A DNA stretch of 62,181 nucleotides, the filler included, from Vermamoeba vermiformis (taxonomy: Eukaryota): the NCBI GenBank assembly GCA_045837725.1. It is 6 parts of 6 records of this genome, joined end to end, with 100 filler letters (N's around TTAATTAATTAA, not from the genome) between each part and the next. Parts side by side here need not be neighbours in the genome. Positions count along the whole stretch, not along the records: positions 33,651 to 47,766 come from JBEWZL010000186.1; 5 more parts are not named here. The stretch is one strand, 5' to 3'. Position numbers and translations under genes: made by a program. Position 1 is the stretch's first letter. Each line of letters opens with the position of its first letter. This document shows positions 2,896 through 59,642 of this stretch, piece by piece. A model generated the notes under the pieces. That model was given only the letters and a program-made list of their open reading frames with translations. It made no database searches and had not been told where the DNA came from.

Positions 2896-3118
2896 CGAAC
2901 GCTAGTGACAGTCGCCGAACACTAGTGACAGTTGCCAAGCGCTAACGACAGTCGCCGAACACTAGTGACAGTCGCCGAGCGCTAACGACAGTCGCCGAGC
3001 GCTAACGACAGTCGCCGAGCGCTAACGATAGTCGTTGAGTGTTAACGAGAGTCACCGAGCGCTAATGAGAGTCGCCTAGCGCTAAAAAGAGTCACCAAGC
3101 ACTAACAAGAGTCACTGA
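2896..3118. repeat. Short-unit tandem repeat (GCTAACGACAGTCGCCGAGC-like, ~20 bp)
   Basis: About 10 directly visible, progressively degenerate copies. Confidence 0.9.
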
Positions 3119-3139
3119 ATGTGGACAGGCATAAATAGT

Positions 3140-3900: not shown

Positions 3901-4079
3901 ATTAGGGAAACTCACCTCCGTGCAATACGCACTGTGCGAGCACACATTCGGCAGCAGACAGCCGGCCGATCGTCACCACCCTGGTAACGAAAGCAGTTGC
4001 GCTGCGTTCAACAACGCAACTAGACAAGAATATTAAAAATAAAAAATAACTAAAATAAATCGACCTTTGTGGTGATCGT

Positions 4080-10000: not shown

Positions 10001-12115
10001 TTTTTTTTAAATTAGTGAAATCGGATCGAGCTTCGTGCTCGTGCAAAATTTAAATAATTGTTTATTTTATTACTAATACATATGCTAATGATTATTTGAT
10101 AGGTAATTTGAGCGTCAATACGAAGACGCTGGTTCTAGATCGAGCGCGAAGTAGATCGCTCGATTACCGGTAGTGGATCAAGAGTAAGTGGTTAAAACAT
10201 TTTATTTATTATTATTTAATATCCTTAATGCGTTTTATTTAGGTTAAACAAATTCACCGTGGCGGATCTCGAACGCGATCTTCCCGCGTTAACAACTTCG
10301 ATGCTTGATGGACAATGACCCTGTAAGTATTCTCAGTGTTAAAAATCAAGCAATACTAACGCGTTATATACATAGAAATGGAAAATACAAGGCCTTATAA
10401 AAGTTAACGAGATCGAGATCCAAAGCGTCTTTGAAAGTTAATATGGAGAGCATCGATTGCTCCGAAAGTAAGTAAAATCTCTTATTTATTAATAGAATAG
10501 TTCATTGATACCGATTTTAGGGTTAGGAGAGGACACGAAGCTTGGGTCAGAGATCGCATCTCGACATCCGATCTCTCAGAAGTTAGTAACACGCATCGAT
10601 CGCTTTGAAAGTAAGTAAAATTGATTTTTTAATAATTAAGGTTTGCTATTTTAAATACTAACGTTTTAATCTCTAGATTTGATCGCGGCGCTGCTTACGC
10701 AAGTAGACGCGGGTTAGAGCGCATTTATTGCGTAAAAGGTTAGTGCAATTCAATGCATATATTTATATTGTATTTTTTAATTATTTTGGTAGAATACCAC
10801 TCCACGGACTTAGCGGTTCCGAGATCACCGGAGTTGCGCGTTATTTATCTTCAATAATAACGCTGTATAACGCGGTAAGTAGCTAATTTAATAGTAGATG
10901 GGACGTGCTAACACTTTATTGAACAGAACATATCAAGCCCTTGAATAGTTAGTCAGTTGGCGCGGATCGATCTAGCAAGATCGGATCCGAAAAAATTGAA
11001 TGGCCTTATTCAAAGGCTACTCAAGGTAAGTAAATATTGTTTAATATTAATCTTTAAATAATTTTTAAAGCTTATTTTAATTACAGGACTTCGCTGATGC
11101 GATCACGGATCTTAGGCGCGATCTGACCCAGCGAGGAAATATCGGTCAGATCGCCAACAATCTCTCAAAAGTAAGTAAATCCTTGTTCCGTATGATGAAT
11201 AATAACGCCTTATATTATTAGAAATGGATGTGAAGGGTTTTTTTACGAGAAAGAAGCGGATCGAGAACGACAGCTCGATCAAGATAAATTCTCACGTAAC
11301 GCATCGATCGCGTTAAAAGTAAGTAGACCTTTCTAAAATTCGTTTATGCGCTATATTAATATTCTTTATATCAACAGAAAATTGGGCAGTGCGGACTTGG
11401 TAAATCTGTGACGCGCGATCTGCCAGCACTGAAAACTTTCAGTCTAACTCGAGACTGACTAAGGTAAGTGCATCGTTATATTAATAATAACGAGTATTAA
11501 CCCCTTCATTAGTGTAAAGTGCTCACAGGTGTCATCATCAAAATGGCGCGATCCGGTCACGGCAAAGTCAAAACTTGGCGTCAAGTCTTATGGTAAGTCT
11601 GAATAACAAATAGTTTATTTATATACGTCGACTATATATTATTACTGTTATTAACATCAGTTATAAATAGATTTCAAGTTGGTAAACGATCGCACGATCC
11701 GCGCACTCAGTTGGACATTGATTTGAAATAGATTGTTGGTTATTGCGAGGCGAACGAAAGGGTAAGTCAATTTAAGCTAAATCTAAGCAATTTTGATAGC
11801 TAACAATCAACAGATTGGTCTGTAATACTTAGTTGGATTACGTGGCGCATCCTGTTTTGTCGTTACACGAGCCTTGGTCGTAAGTCAGAACAAAATCAAT
11901 CCTATTTTATTAATACATGACACTAATATTAATGTAATAGATGGTTGGTTAGGGCGAAGGGTTTGCTGGTGGTGGATCCGCTCCTCTCTTACCGGATCTC
12001 AGTCCAGCGATTAACTGGTGCCAAGTTTGACACCATTTATGGCTATTCAATGTTAATATACACGGAAGAAGTTATTAATTTGTATCAAAACGGTCATACA
12101 TATAAATAAATTGTT
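4080..12115 (+). ncRNA. Putative multi-exon (~40 introns) structured long non-coding RNA made of three diverged tandem units
   Basis: GTAAG...CTAAC/CTAAT...YAG introns every ~120-170 bp. The exon at 10103-10182 has stops in all frames, and no long ORF exists in 8 kb. Hairpin motifs repeat; AATAAA at ~12103. Confidence 0.6.
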
Positions 12116-13851
12116 CGTCGTGTCTGCGAACAAAACTTTTCTTCTAATTTCTTGCCTTTTAGTTTTGTTCAGTTTACCTCCTTTGCGGGTACTGAGCAAC
12201 ACAACTGCAACATACTTTGACTAGTTTAATATACTCAGCGCTTCAACTACGCTTCAACTATGCTACATCCGCTCAAGTCAAGTTTGCTGGCAATTTCAAT
12301 TAAATGGACGTAAGTTTAAGTTATTTTATTTTATTATATCCAAATAATAACATCTAAATTATATTTGTACACTGCGAATATTTCTGTGGCGTTTGAGATG
12401 CATAGGGCTAGCATTGGTTCTACGCATCATGGCAACAGAATCCATTCATATTTGGTATATGATGTCCTTACTATTAGTTATATATGCCATATCAATAGGA
12501 CCCCTTGATCTGCTTGTGACTCTGACACCCAAAATCCAGTGCAAGATTTTGCCAGAAGTGGATATCAGCTTCTTCTTTTCAGAATCAGCTCATACTTGTA
12601 CCATAGTATATTCATACAAATTGTTATTGATCCATGCAATACTGCAAGGATCACATGTTTGCGGCTGTTGACGCATCCAGCTAGCCACCAGATCTCAGAG
12701 CCACGATATTGGATTGATGAATCTTTTTCATATTTTTATGTTACTACATTTATGTTTATTTATCATAATAGTATCGACTTGTTCCGACAGTTGATCCATA
12801 CTCGGCTGATTTGAGTCCCTAATCAGCTTCACATTAACCTTGAGATTGGATTCAAATCCATGCCAAATCAATTATAAACATATTAAAACATGATATAAAC
12901 AGTGTATCTGATAGTTTGAAGTTGAAATGTCAAGTTGATCATAGGTGGAAGAAGGCAACGCTAACCCAGGAGTTGAGGTCAAGTACCAAAGTTGGGATTT
13001 GGCCTCAGCATCAGTGTTTAATCAATGAATAATAGCTAATATTAGTAAAGTAATAGATCTATGTTGAAGATGGGTTGATCTGATCCCCTTATCTGAGTTG
13101 ACATCCAAGGGCTGTGGCTTGGTAAAGTTGAAAGTATGGTTTGAATCAGCAATCCCAGAGTTAGATACATGGTTGGATAGGGCTTTAAGCAGCCTTCAAA
13201 ACAGTACCAGTCTTGCCTCTGTGGCTGTCCTAGTAAGGGAGAAAATCAAGTTAGGGTTTAGAGAGTATACAATGGGATCTTCGGCGCTGTCCGAGGCCGC
13301 TAGGCCGAGGGCAGCGCGTCTCAAAATTTGCACAAATATACTTCAGAGGAGGCTAATTATGCCCAAATTATCAAAAACAATGAGAAAGTTGAGGTAAATC
13401 CGAAACAATTTTGCGAAAATTTGGGTGCCGATGACAATAACTGATGAGAGGGCTGATGACGATGCTGATGACAGGCTTTGGTGAAAAAAGATGATCAGAA
13501 TAATAAAATAATACCTTTAATACATGTAAATATGCTGTTACAAGCTTAAAAATTGATTTTGGAAAGGATTCGGCAAAGTGCGAAAAAAATTAAAAAAATC
13601 AAATTGCGCAATTGATGCGCTGCTTGTAAAAAGGGTTCAAAATATGAATAAAGAGCATGAAAATGAGCAAAAAAGGTGATAAATTACAATAAAATATCAA
13701 ATCTGCAAATTTGCAGATAGGCAGAAAAGAGGCTGTTTTTGATGTTTAACTAGTACCAGGCAGGCTGAAAGACTGCCTGCAATCAATGGGAAGCATCCAA
13801 TTGGCCTTGATACAATAGATCAAGAATAGTTATGGCTGTGCTAATAGTATT

Positions 13852-13870
13852 TTTAGGGTTAGGGTTAGGG
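13852..13870 (+). repeat. Interstitial telomeric repeat (TTAGGG)3
   Basis: TTAGGGTTAGGGTTAGGG seen directly. Confidence 0.9.
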
Positions 13871-14474
13871 ATCTGTTCCGTGAGGCCGTGCCGGCAGGCA
13901 CGGCCGCGTAGCGAACTCCCCTTTATACCAGTACTAGTAGGCCCAGACCAATTATGGTCCTAGGTGGTTGCGTCAGATTAGCAGGTGAGGACTCGGGGCC
14001 AGACCGTGACGAACATGACTTTGCGAAAAAATTTTGACTTAGAATCTTTGCAGATGGGGCAGTGGAATGCAGTGTGCCAGGTTGTTGCCCTTTGGGTATG
14101 AGGTAGACTAGGCCCTAGACTGTATCATATCCAAAGGGGAGCCCTGGGACTGGTCAGGACTTGGCACAAAATGCCTGCAAAAATTTTGGCTTGGGGGCCA
14201 ACTTGACTCTACAGCTCAGTCATGGACTGGTAATCAAGTGGTTCTTGTTGGGATAGAATAGTCTCATATAGTGTTACTTACAGTATGAGTTTGGTTGAGA
14301 TCCCTGCCAAAAACCTGACTTGAAAAAAATCTTGGGGGCCCCAGTGTTTGATGACAGCTCTGCTGATCCAGAGCTTCAATATGGCTCATATTCATATGGT
14401 AATATAGTCTATATGTAAGCATACTATGGTGTAAATATGGCTGCATTTGGAGGAATTTTTCAATTTGGATCTTG

Positions 14475-14687: not shown

Positions 14688-14787
14688 NNNNNNNNNNNNN
14701 NNNNNNNNNNNNNNNNNNNNNNNNNNNNNNNTTAATTAATTAANNNNNNNNNNNNNNNNNNNNNNNNNNNNNNNNNNNNNNNNNNNN
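14688..14787. other. Artificial contig spacer
   Basis: N44-TTAATTAATTAA-N44 (stops in six frames); identical spacers at 24439-24538, 33551-33650, 47767-47866, 59543-59642. Confidence 0.97.
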
Positions 14788-24438: not shown

Positions 24439-24538
24439 NNNNNNNNNNNNNNNNNNNNNNNNNNNNNNNNNNNNNNNNNNNNTTAATTAATTAANNNNNN
24501 NNNNNNNNNNNNNNNNNNNNNNNNNNNNNNNNNNNNNN

Positions 24539-26967
24539 TGATGGTTACAGGTATGTATTGGCAATCACAACAGGTTAATTCTAACCATGACATCAGATTT
24601 ACTGAGGATAAATCGTACTTGAAGAATTTCATATCATTTTTGCAGCAATACTACTCCAACACGAACTCTGCCAGAGCTAAACTTAAATACTCAGCATGGA
24701 CATATGAAGCACTGAAAAGTTTTCCTGTTCAAAATTCTGCCACAGAATGCGGTCCAATGTTACTTCGTGGAGCTCTGGACCTGGCTTACATTGACTCTGA
24801 TAAGCAATTTCAGTGGACAGAACAAGACACTCCTTTCCTTCGTAGGTGGTTTGCAGCTATTATTAACAGTTGGGTACATGGCTCAAAGAGAACAATGCAC
24901 GAATTATTCACCCAAAAATCTGCTGTTGCTGCAGCTCCACAAGTAACAACAACAATAAATCAATCATTACCTGCGTATACAAATTCCCCAACAAAGAAGT
25001 CAGATACTGAAGTAGCTGTGTTAATGCAATCACAGCCAGACAGCGACCACTTGATTAACAACTTGTTACGTCTGCCATTATTGGACTTGTTGCGGCTAGC
25101 AATCTTAGCCAGGATTGCTCTTGCAGATAACTCGTGCAATAGACACCGTGACTATAGAAAGCAAAAGGATTGGCTTTTGGACAAGATAGACCAATGGCCT
25201 CAGAATATATTACAGCAAATTCCAACATTAAAAAAGAGCTACTTAACTCTTGTGCTGCAGTCTGACTTCTGTTATCCAACTGGCAATTTGCGTTCTGACT
25301 TTGGAATGGGCCTTCTTTGTTGGACTACAAAGTGTTGCAGCTCAAGATGCATGTTAACTTTAATGCAAGATTTAATTGCAAATCAACTGGAGTGGAAGCA
25401 AAGTTCCAATGAAGATAGAAACAAATTCATTGCTTGGAAGTCAGAAAGAACAGTCTGTATCAAAGAAAACGAGACATACCGCTTTCGAAAAGAGAGAAAT
25501 CACTGTACTAGAGCATGGCAGGCAGTCTATGGGGTTCATTCAAAGCGAATGAAATTGGCTGCAAGTTTAAAGATTGGCCCAGAGAAGTCTGATGCATGGA
25601 AAGAAGCAGTGAAGCAGCTCAGTTCTCAACAATTGGAGGAAATTGATAACCATATCACTAAGACTTTGCTGCCAAATCCTTTTGCCCCTAAAGGAGTAAA
25701 AGATCATCAATATGTCCTCCCTCCCAATATTACTAGTGTTCACCAACTTTATTGGGACTACGTTTGGAATCATATTTCCCAGTGCTCACACTTCAAAAGA
25801 AATCAAAGGACATCAGATGGAGTTATTTTATTTGAAACAACAAAGAGAAAACTGGAAGGCAAAGAGAAGACACCTGTAATTAAGCGCCGTAGAGTTGAGC
25901 TTTCCTCCAGAGGATTCAGTTCACGAACAACTTTCATTCAATCTGGGGTGTACCAACAAATGAAAGAATCATCTCAGTTGCATTCACAGTTTTGTACTTG
26001 TGTTGTTCATTATGGATCGTGGTACAAGCACTTCAGCAGGCTTTGGAGTTCTCAAGTAACCTCAAATGCATTTGGCAGAACATGGTGCACAGCATGCCAA
26101 AGTTTCATCGATGAATCAACTAAGTGGCATCGCTTTAAGAACTCTCAATCTGAGGAAACTAAAAAATCCAAAAAGTACTTTGATGAACGAAGCAAATGGA
26201 AGGCAATCAAATTAGCATGGAGCAAACACTACTCACATGCACAACAAGAGAGAGAGCATCATGAATTACTCCGTCAACAGGCAGCAAATGGAACACTTCG
26301 GCTATTTTGCTTTGACTTTAAAACTAGTTTAGTTTGTCCCTACTGGGGTTACCATTGTGCTCCTAATCAAGTTCATTATCTCTCAAGAATGAATGCCTAT
26401 TTCTTTGGAATAGTTAATGAAGGAGACCCAGATTCATTTACTGGCTACGTGTATCCAGAAAACTTTGTGGACTCTGATGGACCAGCGGCAACAAAGAAAG
26501 GAGCCTCTCATGTAATTGCTATGCTCTATAACTTCATGCAAAGAAATGGCTTTACTGAAGATAAGAGGAAGACAGACAGAAAGTTACACTTTGCAGCAGA
26601 TAATTGCTCTGGTCAAAATAAGAACCAGCATGTTCTTAAGTTTTTCTGCTCAGCAATTGACCTTGGATGGGCTGACGATATTCTATTGGACTTCATGATT
26701 CCTGGACACACTAAATTTGGACCTGACAGATGGTTTGGCAAAATTGGCAAAGAAATCATCAGATTAGATGCTTGGAATATTGAACAACTTGTTGAAAACA
26801 TCAGGAAAAGTTTGTCATACAAAGAATATGTGGAAGATTTGCGAAAGCTAGATTGTGTCAACTTCAAAACTTTTCTAGATAGTCACTACCGCAAACCAGA
26901 CTCCCTCAAAGTTTCTGAGCAATATCACTTCTTTTTAGGGTTAGGGTTATATTCTCCATCCGGATGA
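24539..26967 (+). CDS. Sola-type (DUF7869-like) DDD transposase with N-terminal Ulp1/C48 peptidase C-terminal half; both ends incomplete
   Basis: PVQNSATECG and WTEQDTPFLRRW (Ulp1-like); CCSSRC and CTAC Cys motifs; CFDFK, ADNCSGQNKN, GHTKFGPDRWFG catalytic motifs. Confidence 0.75.
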
Positions 26968-26999: not shown

Positions 27000-27915
27000 T
27001 AAAATGCGAATGAGTTTGCTAAATAATGCGCATGAGTTCTCTAATAATGCGCATGAGTTCGCTAAATTAGTACAAAATTGTACCAAGAGTATGTTGAAAA
27101 ATAAAGTTTATTTTACTGTTACAGTACGTTGTACATGAAATTTCTATGTCAATTCCCATTATATGGGATTCGATTCAACTCATTCGCATGTAGACATCAG
27201 CATGAGGACATTCGCATGAAGACATCAGCATGAGAACATTCGCATGCTTCATCCGAATGACTGACACTAATGGGGCATGCGCACGTAAATTAAACATGCG
27301 AATGTATTTACTATCATGCGAATGCAGTAACGGACTGTCTGCCATGCGAATGTACTCGCTGCCATGCGAGTGCGATCACTTGATTGTCATGCGAATGTAC
27401 CCGCTGCCATGGTGTGATCACTTGACTGTCATGCGAATGCAATCACTGTCATGCGAGTGTAATCACTTGGCTTTCATGCGAATGTACTTGGCTGTCATGC
27501 AAATGTACTCGCTGTCATGCGAATGCAATCACTTGACTGTCATGCTAATGTACTTGACTGTAATGCTGTCATGCGAATGTACTTGGCTGTCATGCGAATG
27601 TACTTGGCTGTCATGCGAATGTACTTGACTGTCATGCGAATGCAGTAACGGACTGTCTGCCATGCGAATGTACTCGCTGCCATGCGAATGCGATCACTTG
27701 ACTGTCATGCGAATGTACCCGCTGCCATGGTGATCACTTGACTGTCATGCGAATGCAATCACTGTCATGCGAGTGTAATCACTTGGCTTTCATGCGAATG
27801 CGTTGGGTTTCATGCGAATGCATTGGCTGTCATGCGGATGGACTAACTCGCTGTCATGCGAATGCACAAGCTGGCTAACATGCGAATGCACTCCTTGGTT
27901 GTCATGCGAATGCTA
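27000..27915. repeat. Minisatellite array built on (TGTC)ATGCGAATG core, ~21-bp units with higher-order duplication
   Basis: Dozens of CATGCGAATG copies; block ~27316-27480 repeated at ~27633-27800. Confidence 0.9.
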
Positions 27916-28279: not shown

Positions 28280-31187
28280 TTACATTGTCTTTTGTCTCTT
28301 CTCCTCTCGCTCTTGTTCGAGAAGTTTTGCCAAGGAGAACGTAGTAATCTTTCTCTTCTTCTCGGGGTTGGCAGCGGCGGGTGCATTGTTAGACGGAGTA
28401 CTACCATCGTTGTTGACAATGACAGGAACAGGCTTGTTGTACGAAACCTTCGGAACAGGCACCGGTGTGGGTGATGGCATCACTGGCACAGGCAAGGGGA
28501 CTTTTTGCTCTCGTTGTCCTAGTATGACCTTTGGACGACAGTACTTGACGACGGTGTTGGGCTTAGGTTTGCTTGGTTTCGGAGTCTTGCGAGCACTCTC
28601 GATGGACGTAGTTCTCCGGCTACAGTCACCGTACACAAGCTTACGGGATGGCCCTGGCTTCAAGTTCGTGTTTGCGCCAGTTCGCATGTTGGTGTTTGCG
28701 TCGGTTTTCAGGTTGGTATTTGTGCTTGTGTCCTTGTTCGTTTCCCATTCAGGTGGAGCATTCAAATCCAAAGGAGGCGTTGAGGGCGCGTTCGAATCCT
28801 CAGCAACAATCGAGTTGATCGTATGGGTAGGAGAGTCAGACGAAGAACGTGAACTGTGAGCAGCGTGGTAAGAATCAGACTCAAGAGCATCATCAGAATC
28901 AGAGACGATATGAGAAGATTCGATGGACTCGCACTCGGCATCACTCTCGTCGCTGTCCTCGCTGGCCTCACTTTCTTCACTTTCTTCGCTTTCTTCACTC
29001 TCGTCATCACTTCGGTCCTCGTCGCTCTTGTCGTCATCACCGGAATTAGCGCCAGAACCTCCTGATTCGCCTCCCGAGCTGGATCCATCAGCAGAGTCGC
29101 GTGAGCTGTCATCATTGCTCTCCTTCGAATCAGATGAAAAACCAGAAGACAGCTCCATAGAGCTGCTGTCAAGGCTGGACTTTTTTGTCGAGTAGCAACC
29201 TCCGATTGTAGCCCAGTACGTGTTGACGAGTGACATGAACGCAAGTAGCTTGGGCCCAGGCAAAGTTTGCTTGGTGCCATCTTTGAACAAGACTTCGAAG
29301 CAAACGGACTGTCTCTTGCCAACGAACTTGTGACCAACGATTCGGTCAATGCTGTCTGCAAAGTCGTCATGAGTCTTGTCGTAGCGCTTCTCAAACTTGT
29401 TGATGACGCTTGCCATGGCCTCGGAAGGAGCTATTCCAACCGTCTCGTTGACCTCCTTCAGCGTCTTTTCGTTGACACCAGCACGTTGAACTCTGTCGTA
29501 GTGCGTGCTCATAACGGCAGGTGAAGTATTGATCAGTGCTGCGTGCTTCTCGCTGAAAAACTTCGAGATGCCTTCGGTGTCGTTGTTCAAGTGATGTTCG
29601 GTCAGAAAAGAGACCAGCGCACGACGGAAATAAGCGCAGCTGATCGCTCTTCCTGGGAAGTAACTCGCAACGACATTGCTCACCACCTTCGAGAGTGTAG
29701 TGAAGTCTAAACGAGCGAAGGTTAGCGACAAGATGAGTTTGAAATAATTACTTACTAGGTGCGTTACCGTCTCGATTGACCCACATGGACTCAACTCCTT
29801 CGTTACGAACCAGAGGCAAGTAGTGCTCGAACCAAATTCGCAACGGTACTGCAAACGCTGCAGGTAGCAAGAAGAAATCTGTCTTGGCTCGCTTGACTTT
29901 TTCCGGTGGTGGGAAGAACTTGACAGTGTTTCCCTCGAAGACAATGTTCTAATTAAATAATCAGTAAAGTATTGATTAATGGAGCCGATTTGTAGTTCGT
30001 ACCGACACCGTCATTGAAGCCGTGAACTGTCGTCGTTGTCCTCCAAGATACATCATTCCAAGGACGAACAAGTTGCCCATGAAGTTGAACATTCCTTGTC
30101 GCGACAAAGCTGAACTTTGTCGCTCTTTCGTTAAGAACTTGTCATCCAAGTTGATGTAATACACCAACTTGTCACAGATGTGCGCGTTCAACTGCCGTAG
30201 CTCGTCTTGATGAAGCCACTGCCCAAGTAACATCAGGTTCTCAATAACCATTTTATTCGCGTTAGCCTTGGCTTCGTCTTTCGCTTCTGCAGGTCAAAAT
30301 AGTATCAGAATCGTAATCGTACAGCACATGTTCGCAACTTACTTGCACAAGGAGCACGCAGCAAATCCTCCACTGCATCAATCCGTGCCCTGTAATTGGC
30401 AAACTCTTCGAGACCCTATTACTGAATTAGATTACACGCCACGGCCACAAGTAGTTACTTACGTGAAGATACTTCAAGAACATTCGAATAATCTTCAGGC
30501 AATTTGCAATCGTGCTTGCAGACTTGCCCGTGGATTCGTACCACCGCGGAAAAGCGGCAGCCACGCGAACGTCCAGCAGATGACGAAGGTCTACTACGAC
30601 TGGCTTCACTTCCGTATCGACAAAACGAAAGAAGATGCCAAGCATAGAACGTGTTTCGGCGCCGCGATCAGAGCCTGTGTTGGACAAGTGCTTCTCTTTC
30701 ACCTTGAGTTCGTCTGCGACAGAGGACTTTTTCCTGGTCTTGCGCTCACGTTCGATATAAGTATCGAACAACTTCGGTACCTTGAAGTACTTGACCGAGA
30801 CTTGATCAAGCGAGAGAGCATTAATTCGTAGCGGCTTTCCTGTTCTTGAATCCCCTATTAAAAAAGTTAACAAGCTTAAACACCGGGACTAATTAGTCTT
30901 AAACTTACTTTCGGCAACAGCAAACTCCTTAGTTGCTAAGTCTTCAGGTACGTCTTCCATATCAACGACGACAGGAGCGTCGCTATACTGAAGCAAAGCC
31001 TTTTTGACGTTACTGAGCTCAGTGCGAAGCCTTTTAATCTCCGACGAATCTGGTTAGACTGTAAGACTCGGTTACGGAATTACTGAAGGGCTTACCATTC
31101 ATAGTCGCCGTAGACTCTTTTTTCTTATCCACGTCCTACAAATTGTCAATAAATATTATTAAAATTCTGTTGTGTTACCTTCTCCAT
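28280..31187 (-). CDS. Tyrosine recombinase with C-terminal chromodomain-like region and acidic/Ser-rich tail (multi-exon)
   Basis: Spliced product has GGQRRQ (R), EKVKR (K), YFRR (HxxR position), AALINTSPAVMSTHY (catalytic Y), then SIDRIVGHKFVGKRQSVCFEVLFKDG. Confidence 0.7.
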
Positions 31188-31695: not shown

Positions 31696-31766
31696 AAATA
31701 ACTCCGCCGGATAACCTCCGGTACAAAAATGTTAGTGATTAATAAATTATGCATTTAATTACAGAA

Positions 31767-33009
31767 ATGGAAGAGAAGTAAGTCCTACCTCATTCTAGTC
31801 TTAATTTTAACATGCCATAGCGAACTGCGATGCTTATGCTCGAAAGAACACGGACACTTTTACGTGCACTCAAAAGATTTTTCCGAGCAATGGTTTGGTA
31901 GAGGTGCGTTAGCTGGATTGCTAGGAATGACAAAGAACTCTTTCTGTTCTAAGCTATCGATCTACGTGCTTAATTGCCCGGCTGGCTGCGCACCGTTCAA
32001 CACGCGCAAAGTCTTTCATTCTAGCGGCAACGGCAGCCCAATACGCCCAGAACGTTACTATACGTTGGAAGAAGCCAACGATATACTGAGACAATGGCTT
32101 ACGCGCCCAGGAGGGAAAAAGGATTGGGTAAAGAGATTGCACGAGGCCAACGATTTTTTGAAAAACTTACCGGGGGTGCAGCTCGTTGTTGTAATCCAGC
32201 GATCAGAAGATAAGAAGTACTTCCAAATAGCACGCCAACAGCAAGTGCCGCTTGATGAGCGCGACACGCAGAACAAGCCTAAACCAGAAGCTTTTAACGA
32301 CGATAGTGTTGAAGCCGACTCCGAAGGATATTCTGCCGAAGCAATTGCTGCACTGACCGAGATGCAATCTGACTCGGCCGCGGATGAACTTGCCAAACCA
32401 GAGATAGAACCTAGCGTCGGTCACGTGATTGACCAAATAGAGCAGTCCGCGGAGATACATGCTCCCGGTGTTGGGGCAATACCAGAGTTTGCGGAATCTA
32501 GTGTCGGTCACGTGATTGACCAAATAGAGCAGTCCGCGGAGATACATGCTCCCGGTGTTTTTGGGGCAATACCAGAGTTTGCGGAATCTAGCGTCGGTCA
32601 CGTGATTGACCAAAAACAGCAGTCCACGGAGATACATGCTCCCGGTGCGGCCAACACCGTGCCAGAAATCATCGATGTTGATGAATTCGTGCTTCCTACT
32701 AAAGGTACGTTAGTAGTCTGTTACAATCGCATATTGATTAATTTCGCAGCGGAAAAAAATTGGAAGCAATCCTCGATTGAAACTATGTTAGAACCAAAGA
32801 GCGACACGTCAAAGCAATCTAAGAGAAAAACGAACAAAAGAAAATTGACCGTTGGTTTATCGAAGCCGTCGCCGCTCCCATTTAAGAAGCCACGTAACGT
32901 TAAAAAACAAAAGAAGAACAAGAAGGACAATGACACAATCAAACCACAAAAGAACGACTGCGACGACGATGATGACTTCGCAATACTTATTCCACCGATC
33001 ATTAAGTAA
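31767..33009 (+). CDS. Hypothetical protein with internal ~29-30-aa repeats and basic NLS-like tail (cargo)
   Basis: ORF 31864-33009 preceded by a short exon; SVGHVIDQ..QS.EIHAPG x3; Lys-rich C-terminus. Confidence 0.6.
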
Positions 33010-33550: not shown

Positions 33551-33701
33551 NNNNNNNNNNNNNNNNNNNNNNNNNNNNNNNNNNNNNNNNNNNNTTAATT
33601 AATTAANNNNNNNNNNNNNNNNNNNNNNNNNNNNNNNNNNNNNNNNNNNNCGAAAGGTATTGTAAAAACCCAGTTGGGTATATTTCATTAATTTTAGACT
33701 A

Positions 33702-36700
33702 TCATTTGCTCAATCTCTTCTTTTCATAGTCAGCCCATACTTCATTCTTGCTTTGGTCTGCATCTATGAAGCAATTACGTGGCTCCCAGGACTGTTGTCC
33801 TCCGTCCCAAAGTACCAGCCACTCTAACTTACGTCCAACTTTTCGGTGGTCTATAATACTTTTAACTACCCATTCTGCCTCATCTGCAAACAAAAATGAG
33901 TAACAATTAAGAATAAACCTATGATTTGAAGGTACCTTCAACCTGCCGTTTACGCTTCTTTAAATTGACCATTGTTGGTTCTTTTTCTGATGAGACCACA
34001 AGCTCTGGTCCTTCACGTTTAACTTGGCCAATCTGGAACAATTCTGTCATAACTTTCACCTCTTCTGTTCTCTCCAGACCTTTGTAATATTCGATGCCCT
34101 GCAACATGTTAGTAACTGAATAGTAAAGTACAATCCTCACCTTTTCAGAAAGAAATTTAGAGGTCTTTGTCACTATTGTGGCTATCAACTCCTTGGACAC
34201 AGGGTTTGGTTGAAGTGCTACAGGTTCGGCTGACGGAGAATGACTAAACACTGATTCTTCAACTTCAATCCAATTTTCATCGAGAGATTTTTGTTTGAAC
34301 AGGAGTGTTGGAGTGCCATCAAGTCCTTTCTTTAGCCAAAAAGCATATTTGTCTTTGTGACCACTCATTGATGAGCAGAATGTGAGAAACCACTTTTTCC
34401 AGGAAAGAATGGGCCATTGGAGTTCATGAATATACACATCCTTGGGATAGATTGACTTTGCAAATGTAATAGCATCATTCATAGTTTCAATAACTTTCCA
34501 TTGGAAGTAAGTATGAAATGGTTGAAATAGTCGGTCAATATCTTCATGTGTGTGGCCAGGTTGTAAATAATGAATGAAAACCTCTTCAAACCACTCATTG
34601 TGCACTAGTAATGCTGCAAATTGAAGCAAATATTGATTTTTGCCTTCAGCTGCACTGTTATCTACTTGTAAATACAGTGTTGTTGGTCTATTTTGTGGTT
34701 GAATTGATAGCAAAGATTCTTTCAAATGATGGAACAGGAGTGAGATGTAAAAGTCTGCATCTGCAATGTAATCAGACTCCTTGAAAAACACTAACTCTTT
34801 CTTGTTCAGTCCGTGGTTAATGAAGCCTACAAAGCTTGCTTGCAAAAGGTTAATATTCGCCCATTCTTTTGGCATTGGATGGTGCTGAGGAAGTTGAAAA
34901 CTGCCACTTTTGTCTGTAATGATGCTCATCTTCAAGAAGGGTTGCTTAATGGCAATATCTGCTCTTTGCCGATACATCTGTCTGTCCTTTGTAATATAAT
35001 CTATGTGTTCATTCATCTGCTGTTTCAATTGCAACAGCTTATCTTCTGAAGGGCACTGTAGTCGCCGTTGTTTAATCAATAAACAGGTTGAACATTTGCC
35101 AAGTCGAGTCTCCTTCGGGCATTTAACATTCTAAAATCTTTAGCAAAATTGAAAGATGCACATAGTAACTTACTGCAAACCATTTGCGCTTGACCTGCTT
35201 GAAAGTTTCATAGCTTGGTGTGTCAGCTCCTGGGTGAAGATTGGCAAATTCACCAGAAAACAGATTGTACCATTCCTTCACACTTGCATTGGTTAGCAAT
35301 CACAGTATCAGAACAAGAACTTACGTCATGTGTGATGGTAAGTGAATTTCATCTTTAGTTGGCACATAATCACCATATGTATTGCAATAGTTTTGGATCC
35401 AAGCGGCTACTGAGTCTCTCTTTGGGGAGTCATACACCCAAAAGCAATTACCATGCATATGAGCCTTTGTTCCATTTAGGTATTGTTGCTTGCATTGAAT
35501 AACCTTGTCGACAGACACTCCATAAACTCTGCAAAATGCAAGCTGACAAACTGATACACCTCCTACCAGGAAAGCAACAGCTGGGCTATCAATGTTCATG
35601 TTTGTTTCAAAAAATTTCATCAGCCACTTAGTTTTCTGACTGTCATTGAGCTCAGCCACCATCTTGCGGCTTTCCAGAATCTGGCTGGTAGTGAAGAGTT
35701 CAGTACATCTAGCCTTACAACAGTTTGTAGCTGCAACTGGAAAATGTTAGTTAGATCTAAAATTTGCAAGTTATAAGTACCTTTGTTAATTGAATCAGCC
35801 CCAAGTAACTTTTGTTTTTTTAATGACTTGAGTTTTTCAGATGGAATGATATTCTTTGTTAGGACTTGGAACAGATTCTGCGAGGCAATTGGGGTACTTT
35901 CTGGCTGCACTTGCAAGGTAGTAAATAGGTCTTTTGCATTGATGGCTTTCGAAACAGGTGCAGAATTCTAACAAGAGTTAATGCTTAGAAGAACTAAACC
36001 AGGTTAAATTACCTGTCGTTTTAAGTACACAATGTGGTCATAATATATCTTAGATTTGCTTGTTTCAAGTGTTTCTGCCACTGGAGTGGCAATTCCTTCA
36101 TTTTGCATGCCATCATAGAAATACAAGACTGACTGTTGCACAAAATAGCATGTAGTGTGGGCTCCAGTGCACATCATTACAGCTAATAGGTCATACTGAC
36201 AATTGTTGACAGTTAAAACTGGCTCGATGGTTATATTTGGGTTGCTAAATTGCCTTTTGAGTCTTCCTAACTCGACAGTCAAAACTTGTGGCAACTCCAA
36301 TGTACCTACACAGTTTAATATCAAATTCATTTCTTCTAATTGAACTTACGATGTTCAACAGGTTGTATTCCACAATCATAGCAGTTGATGGGTAGCTGGC
36401 AGTTGTAGTCTGCTAAGTGGTTGAGTGCAGCTTGGAGTGAGAGTGTACTGTCAGTCAGTTTTTCTTCAACAAAAACTGCCACTTGATGAAATAGCTTTGT
36501 TGTTGTAGGACATTTGCAGTGGCTAACAACTTTAAGAGTAGAGACAAATAATGCTGATTCGGCAATTGACAGAGTTTTGAAAGCTGCCGTGAGTATTGCA
36601 CCAATTGAGACATAAGTCTTGCAAGGCACCCAGCCTACAACAGGACCAAGGGCATCTATCAGATCCAATTTTAATTGGTGTAGCCTTTCATTGGATAGTG

Positions 36701-36901
36701 GTCCATTATTAATCCAACCCGTCAATAGTTTAAAAAAGTCACTCTCAAACTTGTGTCCTGGCAATTTTTGCAGCACTAGCCGAAGAACGAAGCCAACTGT
36801 CTCAATAGTGCATAGGTCATTCATATCTACCATTGTTAGGTCATTCTATTAATAGTGCTTAACTTACTGTTAGAGCCCCATTGAAAGCCTTGGAATGTCA
36901 T
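33702..36901 (-). CDS. USP/C19-like peptidase - Sola-type DDD transposase - chromodomain fusion (about 9 exons)
   Basis: In-frame GT-AG splices join GFQWGSNNMNDLC, LPQVLTVEL, AVMMCTGAH...YFYDG (USP boxes), CCKARC, KCSTC, ITDKS, VDNSAAEGKN, GHTHEDIDRLF, and EWVVKSIIDHRKVGRKLEWLVLWDG..SWEP (chromo). Confidence 0.8.
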
Positions 36902-38160
36902 TTTCCTGAAGTAACAGTATTAATGAACTGCACATGAATAGTGATTTTTAAAATCTATATTGTTGGTCAATTTTGTATCATTATATGATGATCAATAGCA
37001 TAGAATAGTAAGAGTCGTTCGGCAAAGTAGTGCTGTTTTACGTCAGCAGCAAGAGGGTTGATGCGCACCACTGTGAACCCCTACGATTTTAGCTAGCCAT
37101 AACAGTGCTATATATATATTAGATGCAATGAATAACTGCCAGCATTATATTTAGTTGAGTTCGGCAAAGTCGTGCTGCACACGAAGTTGAAGTTAAAGTT
37201 ACGTTACACCAGTGTTGGGCAATCATGATTTTTCTTACCAAAATCAATTGCATATATAAACTACATGAGGTATTGTAATACCATATATATACTTAATAGA
37301 GTTCGGCAAAGTCTGGGTAAGGCACAGAAATTGTCAACAAAGATGACCCGAGAGAACTTTACTTGCATCAACTCAATAGTCCAGCTACTGCCATTACTAA
37401 TAGCATAAATAATTGTAAGCACAATGAATAGGGATAGGAGTTACTTCAATTCTCTTTTACTCATGAGTAGTGGATCTTGTCAGATCTAGATCGGCAGAAC
37501 TGAACTAGCAAAACCATCTTTAAAATATATATCAAAGCTTTAGTATTGCTCATTGTATATGTACAAATGCATACACCATGTTTGAAACAATTTGGTTAAT
37601 TAGTAATGATACTATAGATTGAAAACCCTCTTACGGCAAGGATTTGACTGGTGCACGAGACAGAACAGATAATAGGCTTTTTGAATATGCAATGATCAGC
37701 CCCAAAATGATAGATATGGGATATATATAATATAAGCAGCATACATATGTTATTATTATGTATTATGTTGATACCTAACAATTTCCGAGCTGGATATGAA
37801 ATTATGCCGATCAATTTTCTCCTCAAAAATTCAAAATAGCCATTAAACTAGCATATTTAAATTATTATAATGCATATATAATTATAAATTGATATATGTC
37901 TTCATATGTAATAATTTCCGAGCAAGATGTAAAGTTAAATCCACCTTGACTTACATTAGTTTTGAATCCATTGAGTTGCCTTGATAATGATGTGTTGTAT
38001 GAGGTATATAATAGGTGATTTGAACTATAGGTGTTGTTTAATGTTATTATTGGAATGAAATAATGGTCAAATAACTTCTCCGTAGCAAGTGCCCTGGTTA
38101 ATTTCCTTTTATGGGTAACCAAATCCAATTGTCCTCGGAAATCATTACATGAACACCACA

Positions 38161-39601
38161 ATGAGTGAGGATACTGACAAGGTATTAATTGACAACCCTA
38201 CTGCTGCATCAGTTGACAGTGAAGCCCAGCAGCCAAAGCAAAATCCCCCGCCCAGTCCAAAATCCACTCGGGAATCATTAATAGCTGGTAATTAACTCTC
38301 TTAATTATTCTATAATTTTCCCAACATTATGATGTCTCTTTATTTATAAGGAAACTAATTTTTAATGGCTAGAAGAAAAAATTGAGTCCCTCAATCCTGA
38401 TCGGCAAACCAAAATTCCTATTGGTAATTCCAATAATGAAGGTACATATTAATTTATTATTGTAAGTATTACTCATACATAAATCAATTATAGTAAGCAA
38501 TGACAGTGTCCAAGAAGAAAAATCTTCCTTCGGCGGGCTGAACTCTGCCGATAACAAAGGTAAGTAATAAGGCATTATTGGATCAACTCTGACTTGTTGC
38601 TGATTTAGAGGTATATACTGAGTTCTACAAGTACCACGGAGAGCCTTGGAATGGCAATTATTATTATAAAGTGACTCGGCGGATGGATGACTTTGCTGTC
38701 GAAGTTGGAGATACAGTGGTTGTAAAAAATGTCATTGGCTTGCATACAGTGCTATTCATCATTCGCAATAAGCAATTCAACAAGGTTCTCCTTGCAGATC
38801 CTTCCCTTAAATCTGTAATTGAAGTCAAGTTCAGTGATGTCGAGTCAGTTGAAGGCAAAGCTAGCAATAGTCAAAAAGAGTGCCTGGATGAATTGTTTAA
38901 GGCTTATTATGCAGCAAAGGTATGTCAGAAACAATATAACCCTATTTATTTACGTTGTCCAGACTAGAAAAGTCTCTCCAAAACCTACTGTGAAAACAGA
39001 GCCAGCAAAAAAGGCTTCTAGGACCCAGCCAGTACGTGCCTCAAGAACACTGGTAAAGCCAGCTGCGCCAAGCAAAAAAGGTAGCAAATTCTATTACCGA
39101 TAGGTTTTGACAAAGACGTTTACAGGAGCAAGCAAGGGACTTGTTGCTAAAGATCAGAAGAGACCTATTGCTGTAGTAGAGCCTTCTTTGGTCAAATGAC
39201 GACAATTGCAAAGTTTGTCTGCATCAGAGTCAGAAGATGAAGTTATCCCACTTAAGAACAAGACAAAGTCCATTCACAAGCCAACATTACCAAAGCTCCC
39301 ACCACCGCAAGCTGCACCCACTGCTGCCACTAACACAACTGAATTAGTTGGAGTTCCAGCTGTCCACTTGAGTCCTCAAACTACAGGATTGACACCCAGC
39401 CCAGTTCCCACTTCTGTGTTGAATACTGCAAACAATGCAAGCAACCAATATCTCCAAAGTATACTGGAGTTGCAGCAAATGCAGCACAGACACTCTATGG
39501 CACAGCAACAGGCCCAGTTCATGACAATTCTACAACAACAGCAGCAAGCAGAGGCAGACAGCTCATTCCGTACTGCCTTCTTACTTGCAAACAAACTTTG
39601 A
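38161..39601 (+). CDS. Second transposon gene: possible BAH-like domain plus Pro/Gln-rich tail (multi-exon)
   Basis: 5' exons splice in frame; YYKVTRR..FAVEVGDTVVV...DVESVEGKA resembles BAH; C-terminal QQQ-rich helix. Confidence 0.55.
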
Positions 39602-40006
39602 TATTTATTCTGGTGTTAGCTAATTCTGCCTAATAAACTGAAGAACAATAGAAAAGCAAAAGAAAACTTTACACACAAAGAATAAATGAAATACACCCAA
39701 ATGGGTTTTTACAATACCTTTCGATTATTATTATGAGAATATTGCTAGATTAGAATCGACCAGTTATTCGTTCTTGAGAATTCTTGAGAATTTCCGGAAG
39801 CGACGTTGACACGTGTTCGTTTAGCGTGCAAACGCTACAGAAACAATGCCCAGCGCCAATGAAGGCTGCCGAGCGAGCTTTCAGTTTCGACGAATACGAA
39901 GTTTCCGCGGAATTTCACCGAGTAGTTTGAGCAGGGACCAACGGCGGCTAGTATAAAAAGTCAGCGTTAATATCTCAACAACTCCTTATTATACTTTAGC
40001 TTGGGA

Positions 40007-41621
40007 ATGAGTGAGTTGCCATATGAGATCGTGTCGCACATCTTCGGCATCTTGGATGTGCGATCTCTAGCCCAAGCAAGCGCGACTTGTCACTCGTGGA
40101 GAGAAGCCTCCAATGACCAAAGACTATGGAAGGCTATATTTCAGGAATCTGTAAGTACTACAAATAAGTGAAGATCTGCTGACGAATAAACGGTTCTCGT
40201 TTACTACCCATTTCAATAGTTTATCGCTCTGGTCATTTTATTAATTTTACCTGTTAAATGTAGTACTCTGAAGACGTCTTTGGTAACGAATTAGTCGAGA
40301 AGGTAAATAAAATAAAATATTTTTTCGATCTGCAATTGTTTTAAAACGATAAAGCGTTATTATTTATCAACTCAATCAATTGTAGCTAACATCATATTAT
40401 ATATGACAGGAGGAGTGGAAGAAAGCGTGCAAATTGTCCTACAAGATCCGCTCCGCTTACTACGGATCGTATATTCCAGACTATCGCATTAAATTCGCGC
40501 CTGAAGATGTTGCTTGGAACGAACAAAACGTCCACGTGCGAGTATTCAAACGAGCGCACTTCAAACAGGCACCTGTCATTTTATACCCCGTAAGTATAAA
40601 ATATCTCGGCAGATCCACCTGGCATAATTTACATTTAACTTGAACACATACTAATGATTGGTTATTATTATAGATGGAAAAAACAGTTGCCAATACTCTT
40701 CCCGATAATGACGCTGTTCGAACGTGGATCGAAGGAAAAATGAAGCTTCACAACCCTGAATTCTGCAAAATATTGGGCTGGACAGGCGACGTATGTACTA
40801 ATAGTATTATAACATTATCGTGTCCATTATTAGAAATGGAAGCTGGATCCGGACCTCACATTTGACACGTGTCAATTTATTTTACTTTGTTTTAGGACGA
40901 AGAAAAATACTTAGTGATTGAAAATTGTCAACGAGGAATCGTTAAACATGCCTCGAATAAGTCATTAACGAGTTGGCAGTTTTATTTCTCGTACGCGCTT
41001 CAGATGGTCGATATTTTCATGAAGGCCCATGAAGTCATGCCAGAACAGAAATATTTTTGTTTTAGACTGGAAGATTTTTATCTCACTTCCGAGATCAAAT
41101 TGAAATTGAACCTCTCAGGTACACTTCGAACAGAAAAAAAAATGCGACCGTACTTAATTCTAATTCTTAGATTGGCTATTTGCTTGGCTATCGCTTTTTG
41201 TTATCAATTATTCTGATGACTACAGACCGAACATTTCACGAAGTAATTTCCCGCCTGAATTAGTTACCGTTGAAGGATTGAAAATTGAGAAGCAGACAGT
41301 CGATGTTTGGGCCATTGCCAAGAACTTACAACACCTCGTACGGTTACATAAAATATACTATACTATAGTGCCCGACACTAACGATAGTTTCTATAGATGA
41401 AACAGCTGTTTGTAGCACCACGTTACTGGTTCTCGTACCCCGAAGTGTTCCCTCATGATTGTCCCGCAGAACTAACCGAATTCATGAAAAAATGCACCGC
41501 TCGCGAGCCACAAGATAGACCTAAGCTTAGTGAACTCAAGCATATGTTAGAAATCATTGCACATAATAACTCGACTCTTACCTCACCCAATGTTAGCGGA
41601 TCAACCCTTTCCAAATCTTAA
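40007..41621 (+). CDS. F-box protein with degenerate kinase-like domain (multi-exon)
   Basis: MSELPYEIVSHIFGILDVRSLAQASATCHSW...LWK (F-box); KLHNPEFCKILGW, FPPE, VDVWA, CPAELTEFMKKCTAREPQDRP (kinase C-lobe). Confidence 0.75.
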
Positions 41622-56836: not shown

Positions 56837-57945
56837 TGCATGCAATTGCGTAAACCAGCATGCAATTAACCAAACTGGCTTGCAATTGCCAAAACTGCGC
56901 GCAATTGCCAAACCTGTATGCAATTTGCTGAAACTGCGCGCAATTGCCGAACCTGCGTGCAATTGCCGAACGTGTGCGCAATTGCCGAAACTGCGCGCAA
57001 TTATCGAACTGCACTCAATTGCTGAACTGCGCACAATTGCCGAACCTGCGCGCAATTGCCAAACTGCATGCTATTAACCAACTTGAATATATTTATGTGT
57101 TACACAGTACATATGCTTTACATAGCTTGCCAATGAATATCAAAGCTTCCACTTAGTATTTTCAAGTCAATTGAGGTCATAGTGACCAGCAATGGCTCCA
57201 TTCTATTAATTAAATCACCCATGAGGGATTTACATATAAAAAAAACAATAATTAGAGCCACTGGAATGTGACAGCAATGGTGAACAGTTTGCTCAGGAAA
57301 ATCATTGCCAACATGAACAAGCATTAAAGGGTGGATTACAAGGCAAGATCACTAGATAATTATTCCTTGGCAATTTGCATCACAGGTAGATAGGGCAAGT
57401 TGTGAGCCTGAGGCCAACCTGTGCATCCCCTCTCAGGCTCCTTCTATCTCCTACAGCTGCTCTGTAGTCTCCCAACCTCCTCTGTTACTTGCCCCTGGCT
57501 TTCCAATTTCTTTGCCTTGTGTACTAATCCTCTTGGATTAATTGTATTTTGCTTTATCTGGCAGAATTGGCTATGCCTGCTTGCGTCAGTGCTAGGGCAC
57601 ACTCAAGGTGTCCCAACATGTTGCTGCTAGTACCCAAAGAAAATGATGGATTGTGAATTGGCACAAGCAAATTGCCAAACCCTGTGTGCAATTTGCCGAA
57701 CTGCGTGCAATTGCCGAAACTGCACGCAATTGCCAAACTGCACGCAATTGCCGAACCTGCGCGCAATTGCTGAACGTGCGTGCAATTGCCGAAACTGCGC
57801 GCAATTGCCGAACCTGCATGCTATTGCCAAAACTACGTGCAATTGCTTAAACTATGTGCCGTATGCTGAAACTGCGTGCAATTTACTCAAACTGTGTGCA
57901 ATTGCATGCTTGTGCGTATAATTGCACGCATGTGCAAGCAGTTAC
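56837..57945. repeat. Two TGCGCGCAATTGCCGAA(A)C minisatellite arrays (56837-57075, 57653-57945) flanking a CpG-poor ~570-bp core
   Basis: 18-19-bp units with palindromic GCAATTGC seen directly. Confidence 0.85.
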
Positions 57946-59358
57946 AGCAAGTCTATTACGGCGTTCATGATAGTTGTCAGTGCGTTGACGTTTGCGTGAG
58001 TAGCAGTCATTCTGTTTGTGGCCTTTCTTCCCGCAGTTGTAGCAAGTGATGTGGTCGAGGCAGTCTTCCGAGCGATGGTTCCTACGACCACAATAGCGAC
58101 ATTCTCGATTGTTATTATAGAACTTACGTTGCCCATAGTGTCGATCGGTGCGAGTGTCCCGTTCTCTCGCACGATCTATCGCGTTGACATCGTTAAACTC
58201 TACGTGTGGAGCCACGGTCGTTCCCACGGAGTTTACGGAGGGCTGCGCGTTATTGACAACGTTGATGTTGTTAACGTTGTTCACTATTCGTGGTTTCTTC
58301 AAGTTCTCGTTATCAGCGATGATTTTAACGAGACCATAGTAGTCGACATTAGGATAGAAGACTTGAAGACCATCACGCAGGGATTGAGGCAATTTCTGCC
58401 ACAATATTCTCTTGCGATTGACATCGCTCAGCTGTAGCACGTGCGAAGAAGCCAACTCGAATTCACGTAAGAAGGTACTGAAGTTGACGTTGAGGGCGTC
58501 CCACTGCAACTCGTCGAGGCGTTCATGGTGGACTAGCTCGCTGTTGGCGGTGTAGAATGCATTTTCAAGCCATCGCAGGTACTCTTCAACGGGTCTCGCT
58601 GTTAAGTCCCTAAAAATGCCGTTAAATTGTTTGCGCACTTCCATGTCAATCTTCTCATAAAACAAAAGCTGTTTGGTATGCACAGACAAGCCTTGCGTTA
58701 GTTGACGAAACATGTGCGTCCAGGTCAGAGTATGTTCCGGGTTCCCGTTGAATTCTTTGATGACGGATCTGGCTGTCTTGAGTGCTTGCTTCCTATCCAC
58801 TGGAGGGTTTTCATTTCTTCTTCGTTGCTCTCTACGATTGCATAGATAATCTTCGTAATCTCGCGGGTCAAAGCTTTCGTCTTCGGATTCCGATCCAGAC
58901 TCGCTGGATCTTGACTCGTTAGATCTACGGCTGTCATGATTGCTACTGCTGGAACTAGAATCACTAGGCTCAGGCTCCTCGTTCTCTCCTCTTAGATCTT
59001 CTTCTTCGAGATTTTCCGCTGACGAATTTGACGGTTCTTCGTCGGAGTTTTCTCGTTCGTTCCGTCTTCGAGCAGCTTCTCTGCGATTGATTCTACGACG
59101 ATCTTCTAGTTGAGCTTCTTCTTCGTCGTTTCCTTCCTCCCCTTCTTCGTCTCTTGGTCTCCGTCCTCTTCTAACGTTAACGGCAGCGGCAGCACGTGCA
59201 CGATTTTCACGCAAAGTTCTCAAACGCCTTAGATTCTTCAAATCTTTGCGTTGTTCGTTCGTGAGCTCGTCGCGTGGAATTGCTTCTAACTCTTCAAGAG
59301 TATAATCTTTCCCTAACCGTCTCCTCCTTTCCATAATTGAGTTTTTCCGATGCACCAA
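57883..59358 (-). mobile_element. Retrotransposon Gag-like ORF with two CCHC zinc knuckles, truncated before pol
   Basis: CRYCGRRNHRSEDC and CYNCGKKGHKQNDC; capsid-like IKEFNGNP..W region; ORF runs into the minisatellite. Confidence 0.8.
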
Positions 59359-59642
59359 TGTAATGAAGGTGGTCGGATGCAGTTACCAAAAATAAAGAGA
59401 CGTGTGTTAGAGTTAACGAAAATAACAAATCGATTTATTTGACTGTCAGTCTCGTTACTATGTACAAGATACACGAATTTCGATTCGGAGATTTCTGTGA
59501 CATCACGTGTCACCACTCCGTCTATAATTAGCTTCATCACACNNNNNNNNNNNNNNNNNNNNNNNNNNNNNNNNNNNNNNNNNNNNTTAATTAATTAANN
59601 NNNNNNNNNNNNNNNNNNNNNNNNNNNNNNNNNNNNNNNNNN

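Follow-up and report, generated by a model that had tools for sequence, protein, structure and literature searches.

The genome assembly of Vermamoeba vermiformis (GenBank GCA_045837725.1) was analysed in a stretch of 62,181 nucleotides, referred to here as the window, and a transposable element of 6,073 bp was located at positions 33651–39723, at the start of the window's fourth contig (JBEWZL010000186.1). The window is composed of separate contigs joined by five linkers of the form N...TTAATTAATTAA...N, with cores at positions 14732, 24483, 33595, 47811, and 59587; the TTAATTAATTAA linker introduces stops in all frames, and features should not be read through the linker points. The element is bounded by terminal inverted repeats (TIRs) and carries two divergent genes, one encoding a predicted transposase with a core of the Pfam family DUF7869, an N-terminal region resembling a ubiquitin-specific protease (USP), and a chromodomain-like C-terminus. 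Relatives were found at six metagenome loci (cited where needed as L001 to L006), which fall into three subfamilies and show 72–77% DNA identity over the longest BLAST alignments. The features of the element are listed below, with the transposase exons in the order in which they are read on the minus strand.

33651–33693, no strand: terminal inverted repeat on the 3′ side of the transposase gene; the first base of the contig is the start of the repeat
36868–36901, minus strand: exon 1, MTFQGFQWGSN; ATG here and in subfamily B, CTT in L005
36350–36826, minus strand: exon 2, N-terminal half of the USP-like domain; invariant Cys17 in NDLC, CxC...CxxC cysteines C115, C117, C160, and C163
36013–36305, minus strand: exon 3, C-terminal half of the USP-like domain; invariant His220 (G-A/S-H-T-T-C-Y-F) and Asp235 (Y-x-Y-D-G)
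35781–35967, minus strand: exon 4, weakly conserved linker; ratio of nonsynonymous to synonymous substitution rates (dN/dS) 0.26 against L002
35325–35736, minus strand: exon 5, conserved Cys-rich region (NCCKARC onward)
35174–35282, minus strand: exon 6
34141–35130, minus strand: exon 7, DUF7869 core; invariant CxxC (C517/C520), D577, D661 (DN...KN), and D703 (PGHT...D)
33936–34098, minus strand: exon 8, variable spacer that includes the basic run KKRKR
33702–33883, minus strand: exon 9, chromodomain-like C-terminus; W893 and W914, third cage position G916
36902–38148, no strand: intergenic region between the divergent genes, presumed promoters
38149–39601, plus strand: second gene, six exons, all introns GT..AG, inside the element and divergent from the transposase gene
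38149–38287, 38373–38441, 38494–38559, 38609–38919, 38963–39080, and 39126–39601, plus strand: exons of the second gene
39681–39723, no strand: terminal inverted repeat at the other end; AT follows in the window copy

Gene structure, termini, and copies

The minus-strand gene joins nine exons into 2,847 nt, corresponding to 948 codons and a stop, with no internal stop codon, and all eight of its introns are of the GT..AG type and measure 41–52 nt. The six junctions named in the first-pass annotation (EH/RTLELP, KRQ/NSAP, INK/VAATNCC, HMT/VKEW, WFA/NVKC, and VE/DEAEW, the slash marking the join) were all reproduced with GT..AG introns, and two further introns were recognised, namely the first intron at 36867–36827 and an in-frame intron of 42 nt at 34140–34099 inside a long open frame. 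The stop codon of the transposase lies 8 bases from the terminal repeat. At the opposite end of the gene, a conserved TTYAG/G stands just 5′ of exon 1, and an additional upstream exon is therefore possible.

Comparison with the relatives argues for a single protein, as had been claimed. The exon lengths of 34, 477, 293, 187, 412, 109, 990, 163, and 182 nt were kept to the base. The exceptions, two in number, are indels of decayed copies: L001, L002, and L006 have a 2-nt deletion of exon 2 in common, and exon 9 of L003 has lost 1 nt. All eight introns, by comparison, varied in length among the relatives, and in most comparisons they were less conserved than their own exons. The dN/dS values against L002 for exons 3 to 9 were 0.09, 0.26, 0.09, 0.09, 0.05, 0.25, and 0.06, all well below 1, and exon 2 compared with L005 gave proportions of nonsynonymous and synonymous differences of 0.22 (pN) and 0.88 (pS, saturated). 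Exon 4 measured exactly 187 nt in the four of four loci that cover it, while both neighbouring introns changed in length. Such a pattern would be anticipated for a single spliced protein-coding gene in which selection acts on all domains. A search for relatives of near equal length found six, and a search for longer related proteins found one (P0001), which has no N-terminal domain.

Both arms of the terminal repeat open with CGAAAGG and extend over 43 nt, of which 40 are complementary (93%) and 3 are mismatched; the start given for the repeats in the first-pass annotation was thus correct, and the length of 38 bp was not. An exact match to the first 22 nt of the repeat is present at two places in the window, compared with none expected (100 shuffles). 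Because the linker directly precedes the first base of the left repeat, the window copy has no left flank. Every element end seen in this copy and in others is followed by AT, eight of eight in all, comprising the right end in the window (39724–39727), L002 (position 4202), L003 (position 2727), L004 (position 2723), and four listed records of the DNA run X2. AT may be a 2-bp target-site duplication, the repeat's own end, or the beginning of a 4-mer that starts with AT, and the ends fit all three equally. No empty site was found for the element. The flanks of L002 and L003 are nearly identical, and the two may represent a single insertion site or a nested repeat.

In run X2, word depth, which does not equal copy number, was 3,043–14,207 in the 29 bins reaching the element, compared with 283 in the last bin of the flank. 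Of the 627 matching contigs, 457 were at least 99% alike, and four listed loose ends, out of a set with 18 more, ran from the repeat into differing flanks. Depth, likeness of the contigs, and differing flanks point to many recent copies, and the assignment to TIR transposons was borne out by the inverted repeats, the multiple copies, and their different surroundings.

The second gene had been absent from the first-pass annotation. In its predicted product, a compact domain occupies the middle and the tail is rich in Pro and Gln; searches returned no Pfam domain, no database relatives, and only chance PDB matches. Between the two genes, identity with L006 in windows of 60 columns was 72–92% for 37860–38280 and about 48–65% for 36930–37400.

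Domain content of the transposase

Exon 7 matched Pfam DUF7869 (PF25273) with an E-value of 7.9e-39 and 133.7 bits, compared with a cut-off of 26, over model positions 2–190 of 192. In the alignment of six DUF7869 proteins, which share 18–80% identity with the one in the window, the CxxC motif (C517 and C520) and the aspartates D577, D661, and D703 were invariant in all six. These aspartates, D73, D157, and D199 in the numbering of the exon-7 frame, are spaced by 83 and 41 residues and are presumably catalytic; the DDD core proposed earlier was accordingly found again as three invariant aspartates within the family match. Exon 5 also aligns with the N-terminal part of the distant DUF7869 proteins P0001 and P0006, and its Cys-rich region may bind DNA. 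The KKRKR stretch of exon 8 could serve as a nuclear localisation signal.

When exon 9 was compared with PDB sequences, 26 of the 30 listed matches were chromodomain proteins, the best being CBX1 (E 4.6e-4). On this similarity we regard the chromodomain as real; the reading of methyl-lysine by it is not assured, as discussed below.

Regarding the N-terminal region (residues 1–268, exons 1–3), the order of motifs was established by eye: the NDLC cysteine opening a helix, then a helical segment, CxC...CxxC, LPxVLxxELGR, YDLLAV...G-x-H-T-T-C-Y-F, Y-x-Y-D-G, and a final YDHxVY strand. We take this order to match the USP plan, with CxC...CxxC presumably at the place of the zinc ribbon in the USP fingers, and Cys17, His220, and Asp235, picked from USP motifs, as the candidate catalytic residues. 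Cys17 was kept in the four of four rows covering it, and His220 and Asp235 were invariant in four of four rows; in the decayed copy L001, the position of Asp235 reads N. The four zinc-ribbon cysteines were conserved in all aligned rows that cover them, and the candidate residues follow the Cys-His-Asp/Asn order of USP/UCH enzymes (Peptidase C19).

A language-model protein atlas offered additional support for exon 3, with a recognition of 2478 and a first match of 0.95 sharing 193 of 256 features. About 1 in 100 shuffled proteins attain a value of at least 0.95, and at least 170 shared features are typical of true family members; one third of shuffled proteins, nevertheless, also receive ten of ten family-consistent matches. 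In the first cluster, 11% of the members carry PF00443, seven of the matches falling in that set, and the match at rank 24 (0.87) is a cluster in which 100% do; the look-alikes of exon 3 are thus UCH clusters, a lead towards the USP/UCH fold. AlphaFold2 models were poor, with predicted local distance difference test (pLDDT) values of 52.6 and 43.9. In these low-confidence models Cys17 lies at a helix start and the His and Asp region in strands, and Foldseek and VIA fold searches with them gave no significant match. Co-folding of the exon-2 and exon-3 peptides with ESMFold2, with zinc included and alignments unused, lent the assignment weak support, with a score of 0.55 against 0.00 for the best control, a partner pLDDT of 71 or more, and agreement between runs in no less than 48% of contacts. 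Among solved complexes, 51 of 78 attain the mark applied to such pairs, as do 2 of 108 mismatched pairs; at scores of 0.60 or below, only 5 of the 78 solved complexes attain it, and all 4 of the mismatches that pass (of 180) lie there. Viral contigs scanned with the exon-3 alignment gave 38 pattern matches, none of which was confirmed.

Interpretation and alternatives

We consider that the element is probably an autonomous cut-and-paste TIR transposon with two divergent genes, one of which encodes a single fused transposase of 948 residues with a USP-like domain and a chromodomain. As part of the same explanation, and with the same degree of confidence, the protein would consist of a papain-type USP-like domain (residues 1–268), a linker, the Cys-rich region, the DUF7869 core, the basic stretch, and the chromodomain. 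The USP reading, based on the order of the motifs, the conserved Cys, His, and Asp, and one language-model look-alike, is likely but unproven: there is a good chance that the N-terminal domain has a USP-type fold, and the chances that it is an active enzyme are about even.

Several results weigh against this explanation. The N-terminal domain could be searched only in pieces because introns split the coding sequence, the pieces being exons 2 and 3 and P0011, a 200-residue read-through of a related copy. Neither PF00443 nor PF13423 was matched in Pfam by the exon-2 and exon-3 frames at E-values up to 1, and P0011 matched no Pfam family at E up to 10 and nothing in PDB. Searches of PDB sequences with phmmer at E up to 10 returned three matches for exon 3 and one for exon 2, none of them a USP, and PDB profile searches returned one unrelated match in one case and none in the other, again without a USP. 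Against 1.84 billion representative sequences, exon 2 found only three matches, all of them close family fragments, and the protein atlas gave no usable match for it. The boxes of Cys and His/Asp reported in the first-pass annotation therefore stand as regards their order and conservation, and are not accompanied by a Pfam, PDB, or AlphaFold2 match. As for the C-terminus, the match to the Pfam chromodomain (PF00385) reached an E-value of 0.012 and 15.9 bits, under the cut-off of 25.1, and in the alignment with CBX1 only two of the three positions of the aromatic cage, which we assigned from HP1/CBX structures, are aromatic (W893 and W914), the third being G916, or Cys in subfamily C. The earlier identification of a chromodomain can be retained for a chromodomain-like C-terminus similar to CBX1, and less surely for a methyl-lysine reader. 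At the level of the element, a target-site duplication is not readable in the window copy because the left repeat sits at the contig edge, and the second gene holds an in-frame TGA at 39197–39199 (plus strand), followed by 133 open codons; the TGA may be where the gene genuinely ends or may be a nonsense change, and no variant of this codon is listed for the contigs of run X2. The element had been called intact, a description that applies to the unbroken frame of the transposase and not to this second gene. Finally, the start codon is absent from L005, where CTT replaces ATG, so the true 5′ end is uncertain, and the exon joins were derived from genomic DNA and from the comparison of relatives rather than from RNA, three RNA runs labelled with the same species having yielded no matching reads, an outcome that does not count as a test of the joins.

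The strongest alternative accepts the element and the fusion as real and holds that the N-terminal domain is not a USP but a lineage-specific zinc-binding domain or a dead papain-like scaffold, which would serve protein contacts such as oligomerisation or the binding of host factors. The null results in Pfam, in PDB sequences and profiles, and in the fold searches agree with it, as do the rarity of exon 2 among sequence representatives and in the atlas, the low proportion of PF00443 in the first cluster matched by exon 3, and the ease with which shuffled proteins look consistent with a family. This alternative must contend, however, with the first atlas match of exon 3 and its many shared features, with a Cys, His, and Asp conserved in the order of clan CA with a dN/dS of 0.09 in exon 3, and with four conserved cysteines at what would be the place of the zinc ribbon in USP fingers; we consider it unlikely, although it deserves more weight than those that follow.

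A copy that is decayed or domesticated and no longer transposes is less probable still. Decay is evident among the relatives, since a stop interrupts exon 3 in L001, L003, and L006, exon 9 of L003 is frameshifted, and L001, L002, and L006 have the 2-nt deletion of exon 2 described above; subfamily C, moreover, is altered beside the third aspartate (PRHTHKDID for PGHTHEDID), and the TGA of the second gene points in the same direction. The window copy, in contrast, retains both repeats and an unbroken frame of 948 codons, and the depth, uniformity, and varied flanks of the element in run X2 speak against a dead copy. That a captured protease-like gene (exons 1–3) is transcribed apart from the transposase (exons 5–9), as two or more genes, seems very improbable, for although the junctions are known from DNA alone, exon 4 is a weakly conserved linker, and the distant proteins P0001 and P0006 lack the N-terminal domain, frame and phase hold through eight introns without a stop in 948 codons, and exon 4 itself is under purifying selection and keeps its exact length between introns that vary.

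Under the preferred explanation, that of an autonomous transposon with one fused transposase, we infer the following steps. The DUF7869 core would cut and rejoin DNA at the repeats, and the chromodomain, acting like that of chromoviral integrases, would tether the transpososome to histone H3 tails and favour insertion into marked chromatin. Ubiquitin or a ubiquitin-like modifier would be taken off by the protease-like domain; its substrates would be the transposase or repair factors, thus spared degradation, or else the histones where the element inserts. Removal of a modifier would parallel the role proposed for the OTU, Ulp1, and VTD domains of other mobile elements. A bolder version, in which one polypeptide is at once a DDD transposase, an active deubiquitinase, and a reader of histone tails, so that chromatin is read for a landing site and ubiquitin erased there, with ubiquitinated H2A or H2B or the marks of repair and degradation factors as targets, is put forward tentatively, and we think it somewhat doubtful as a whole.

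Other frames in the window and comparison with known elements

A second DUF7869 core was found in the window at 24487–26967 (plus strand), in an uninterrupted frame of 826 codons that is cut by the start of its contig (DUF7869 core E 2e-17). Before the core lies a remnant resembling Ulp1/SENP proteases with the motif QNSATECG, which reached an E-value of 0.003 for Pfam C48, below the cut-off, and the only two PDB matches of the frame were SENP2 (E 0.56) and SENP5 (E 0.93). Compared with our element, the frame has a core of the same family, a protease of Ulp1/SENP-like rather than USP-like type, and no introns; on these features we assign it to a second transposon family with the same type of core and a different protease. 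The Ulp1-like remnant beside this second core therefore suggests that the core family has been combined with two different ubiquitin or SUMO-type proteases within a single genome.

Short degenerate tandem repeats lie downstream of the 826-codon frame, at 27200–27900, and show as repetitive CECxHL/MRMY frames on both strands. Additional frames in the window included one of 576 codons at 28280–30010 (minus strand) with no Pfam family, in which a segment containing …IVGHKFVGKRQSVCFEVLFKDGTKQTLP… looks chromodomain-like by eye and is followed by an acidic Ser/Asp/Glu-rich tract. At 31759–33009 (plus strand), a frame of 416 codons with no Pfam family has a Lys-rich tail and contains a unit of about 25 residues (…SVGHVIDQIEQSAEIHAPGV…) that is repeated three times almost identically. 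Some 250 bp beyond the right end of the element, an open frame at 39971–40171 (plus strand) starts with MSELPYEIVSHIFGILDVRSL... and appears F-box-like by eye, while a frame of 499 codons at 57883–59382 (minus strand) carries a CCHC zinc knuckle (E 4.2e-6) and possibly represents a retroelement Gag.

The element is of interest on several counts. Pfam lists DUF7869 as a family of unknown function, and an apparently complete element with clear ends makes a transposase role testable. The occurrence of two different protease domains of the ubiquitin/SUMO type on this core in one genome adds weight to the view that mobile elements recruit such enzymes repeatedly. The unbroken copy provides a construct for testing the activity of the protease, the steering by the chromodomain, and the need of either for transposition. 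If the bolder version were true, this would be the first case of a reader-eraser pair built into a cut-and-paste transposase, and the DUF7869 superfamily, so far uncharacterised, would gain its first functional handle.

Our searches of the literature, mostly at the level of listings and of main texts rather than supplements, where domain tables may be found (for example Table S11 of PMC11417382), found no description of a protein with these three domains and no paper naming DUF7869. The earlier suggestion that the architecture is undescribed nevertheless does not hold in kind, since mobile elements with OTU, Ulp1, VTD, or UCH domains are in print, as is a fusion of C19 with a transposase (PMC2836005, PMC9741609, PMC11417382). 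According to the passages of PMC2836005 on these elements, Ginger1 transposases carry OTU or Ulp1 domains and Mutator elements carry Ulp1, and a role of the ubiquitin pathway in transposition was proposed there. Ginger1 thus resembles our element in having a cut-and-paste transposase in one frame with a cysteine protease domain of the ubiquitin/SUMO type; it differs in its integrase-like DDE core and in the C-terminal position of the OTU or Ulp1 protease, and those passages report no chromodomain. The closest parallel for the protease is the Trichomonas vaginalis protein XP_001314237.1, in which Peptidase C19 (the USP family) is joined to a DDE-type transposase_11 (PMC2836005). As judged from its description there, that transposase is IS5-like (pfam01609) and not of the DUF7869 family, and the description mentions no chromodomain.

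Deubiquitinase-type domains are also stably carried by proteins of Helitron-like elements. VTD domains occur in Helitrons of the Helentron subclass, with two zebrafish elements selected for biochemical and structural study, and the passages of PMC9741609 describe the transposon-encoded VTD group as cleaving ubiquitin chains and Ub-AMC, while UCH, OTU, and Peptidase_C48 are described as stably included in HLE2 or Helitron-like elements (PMC11417382). In contrast to our element, these have an unrelated RepHel enzyme and no TIRs, and the passages of both papers report no chromodomain. The position of the chromodomain finds its counterpart in the chromoviruses (Ty3/Gypsy), where it stands at the extreme C-terminus of a DNA-joining enzyme and, in the integrase, has been associated with a gene-poor heterochromatic location (Gao et al. 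2008, cited in PMC6839031). Those enzymes are retroelement integrases, however, and not cut-and-paste transposases, and the cage of the present element is aromatic at two of three positions. With respect to the core, the published description of Sola elements (Bao et al. 2009, summarised in PMC10741241) gives a DDD transposase, a 4-bp duplication, a size of 2–9 kb, and TIRs of 11–1124 bp. Our element has a DDD transposase and falls inside those ranges in both TIR length and size, a likeness drawn from that description and not from the sequences of Sola1, Sola2, and Sola3. The summary in PMC10741241 mentions neither a protease nor a chromodomain, whereas the transposase of this element has a chromodomain-like and probably a protease-like domain. 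The kinds of added domain are thus each known from mobile elements, and it is their combination, and the core family to which they are attached, that are new.

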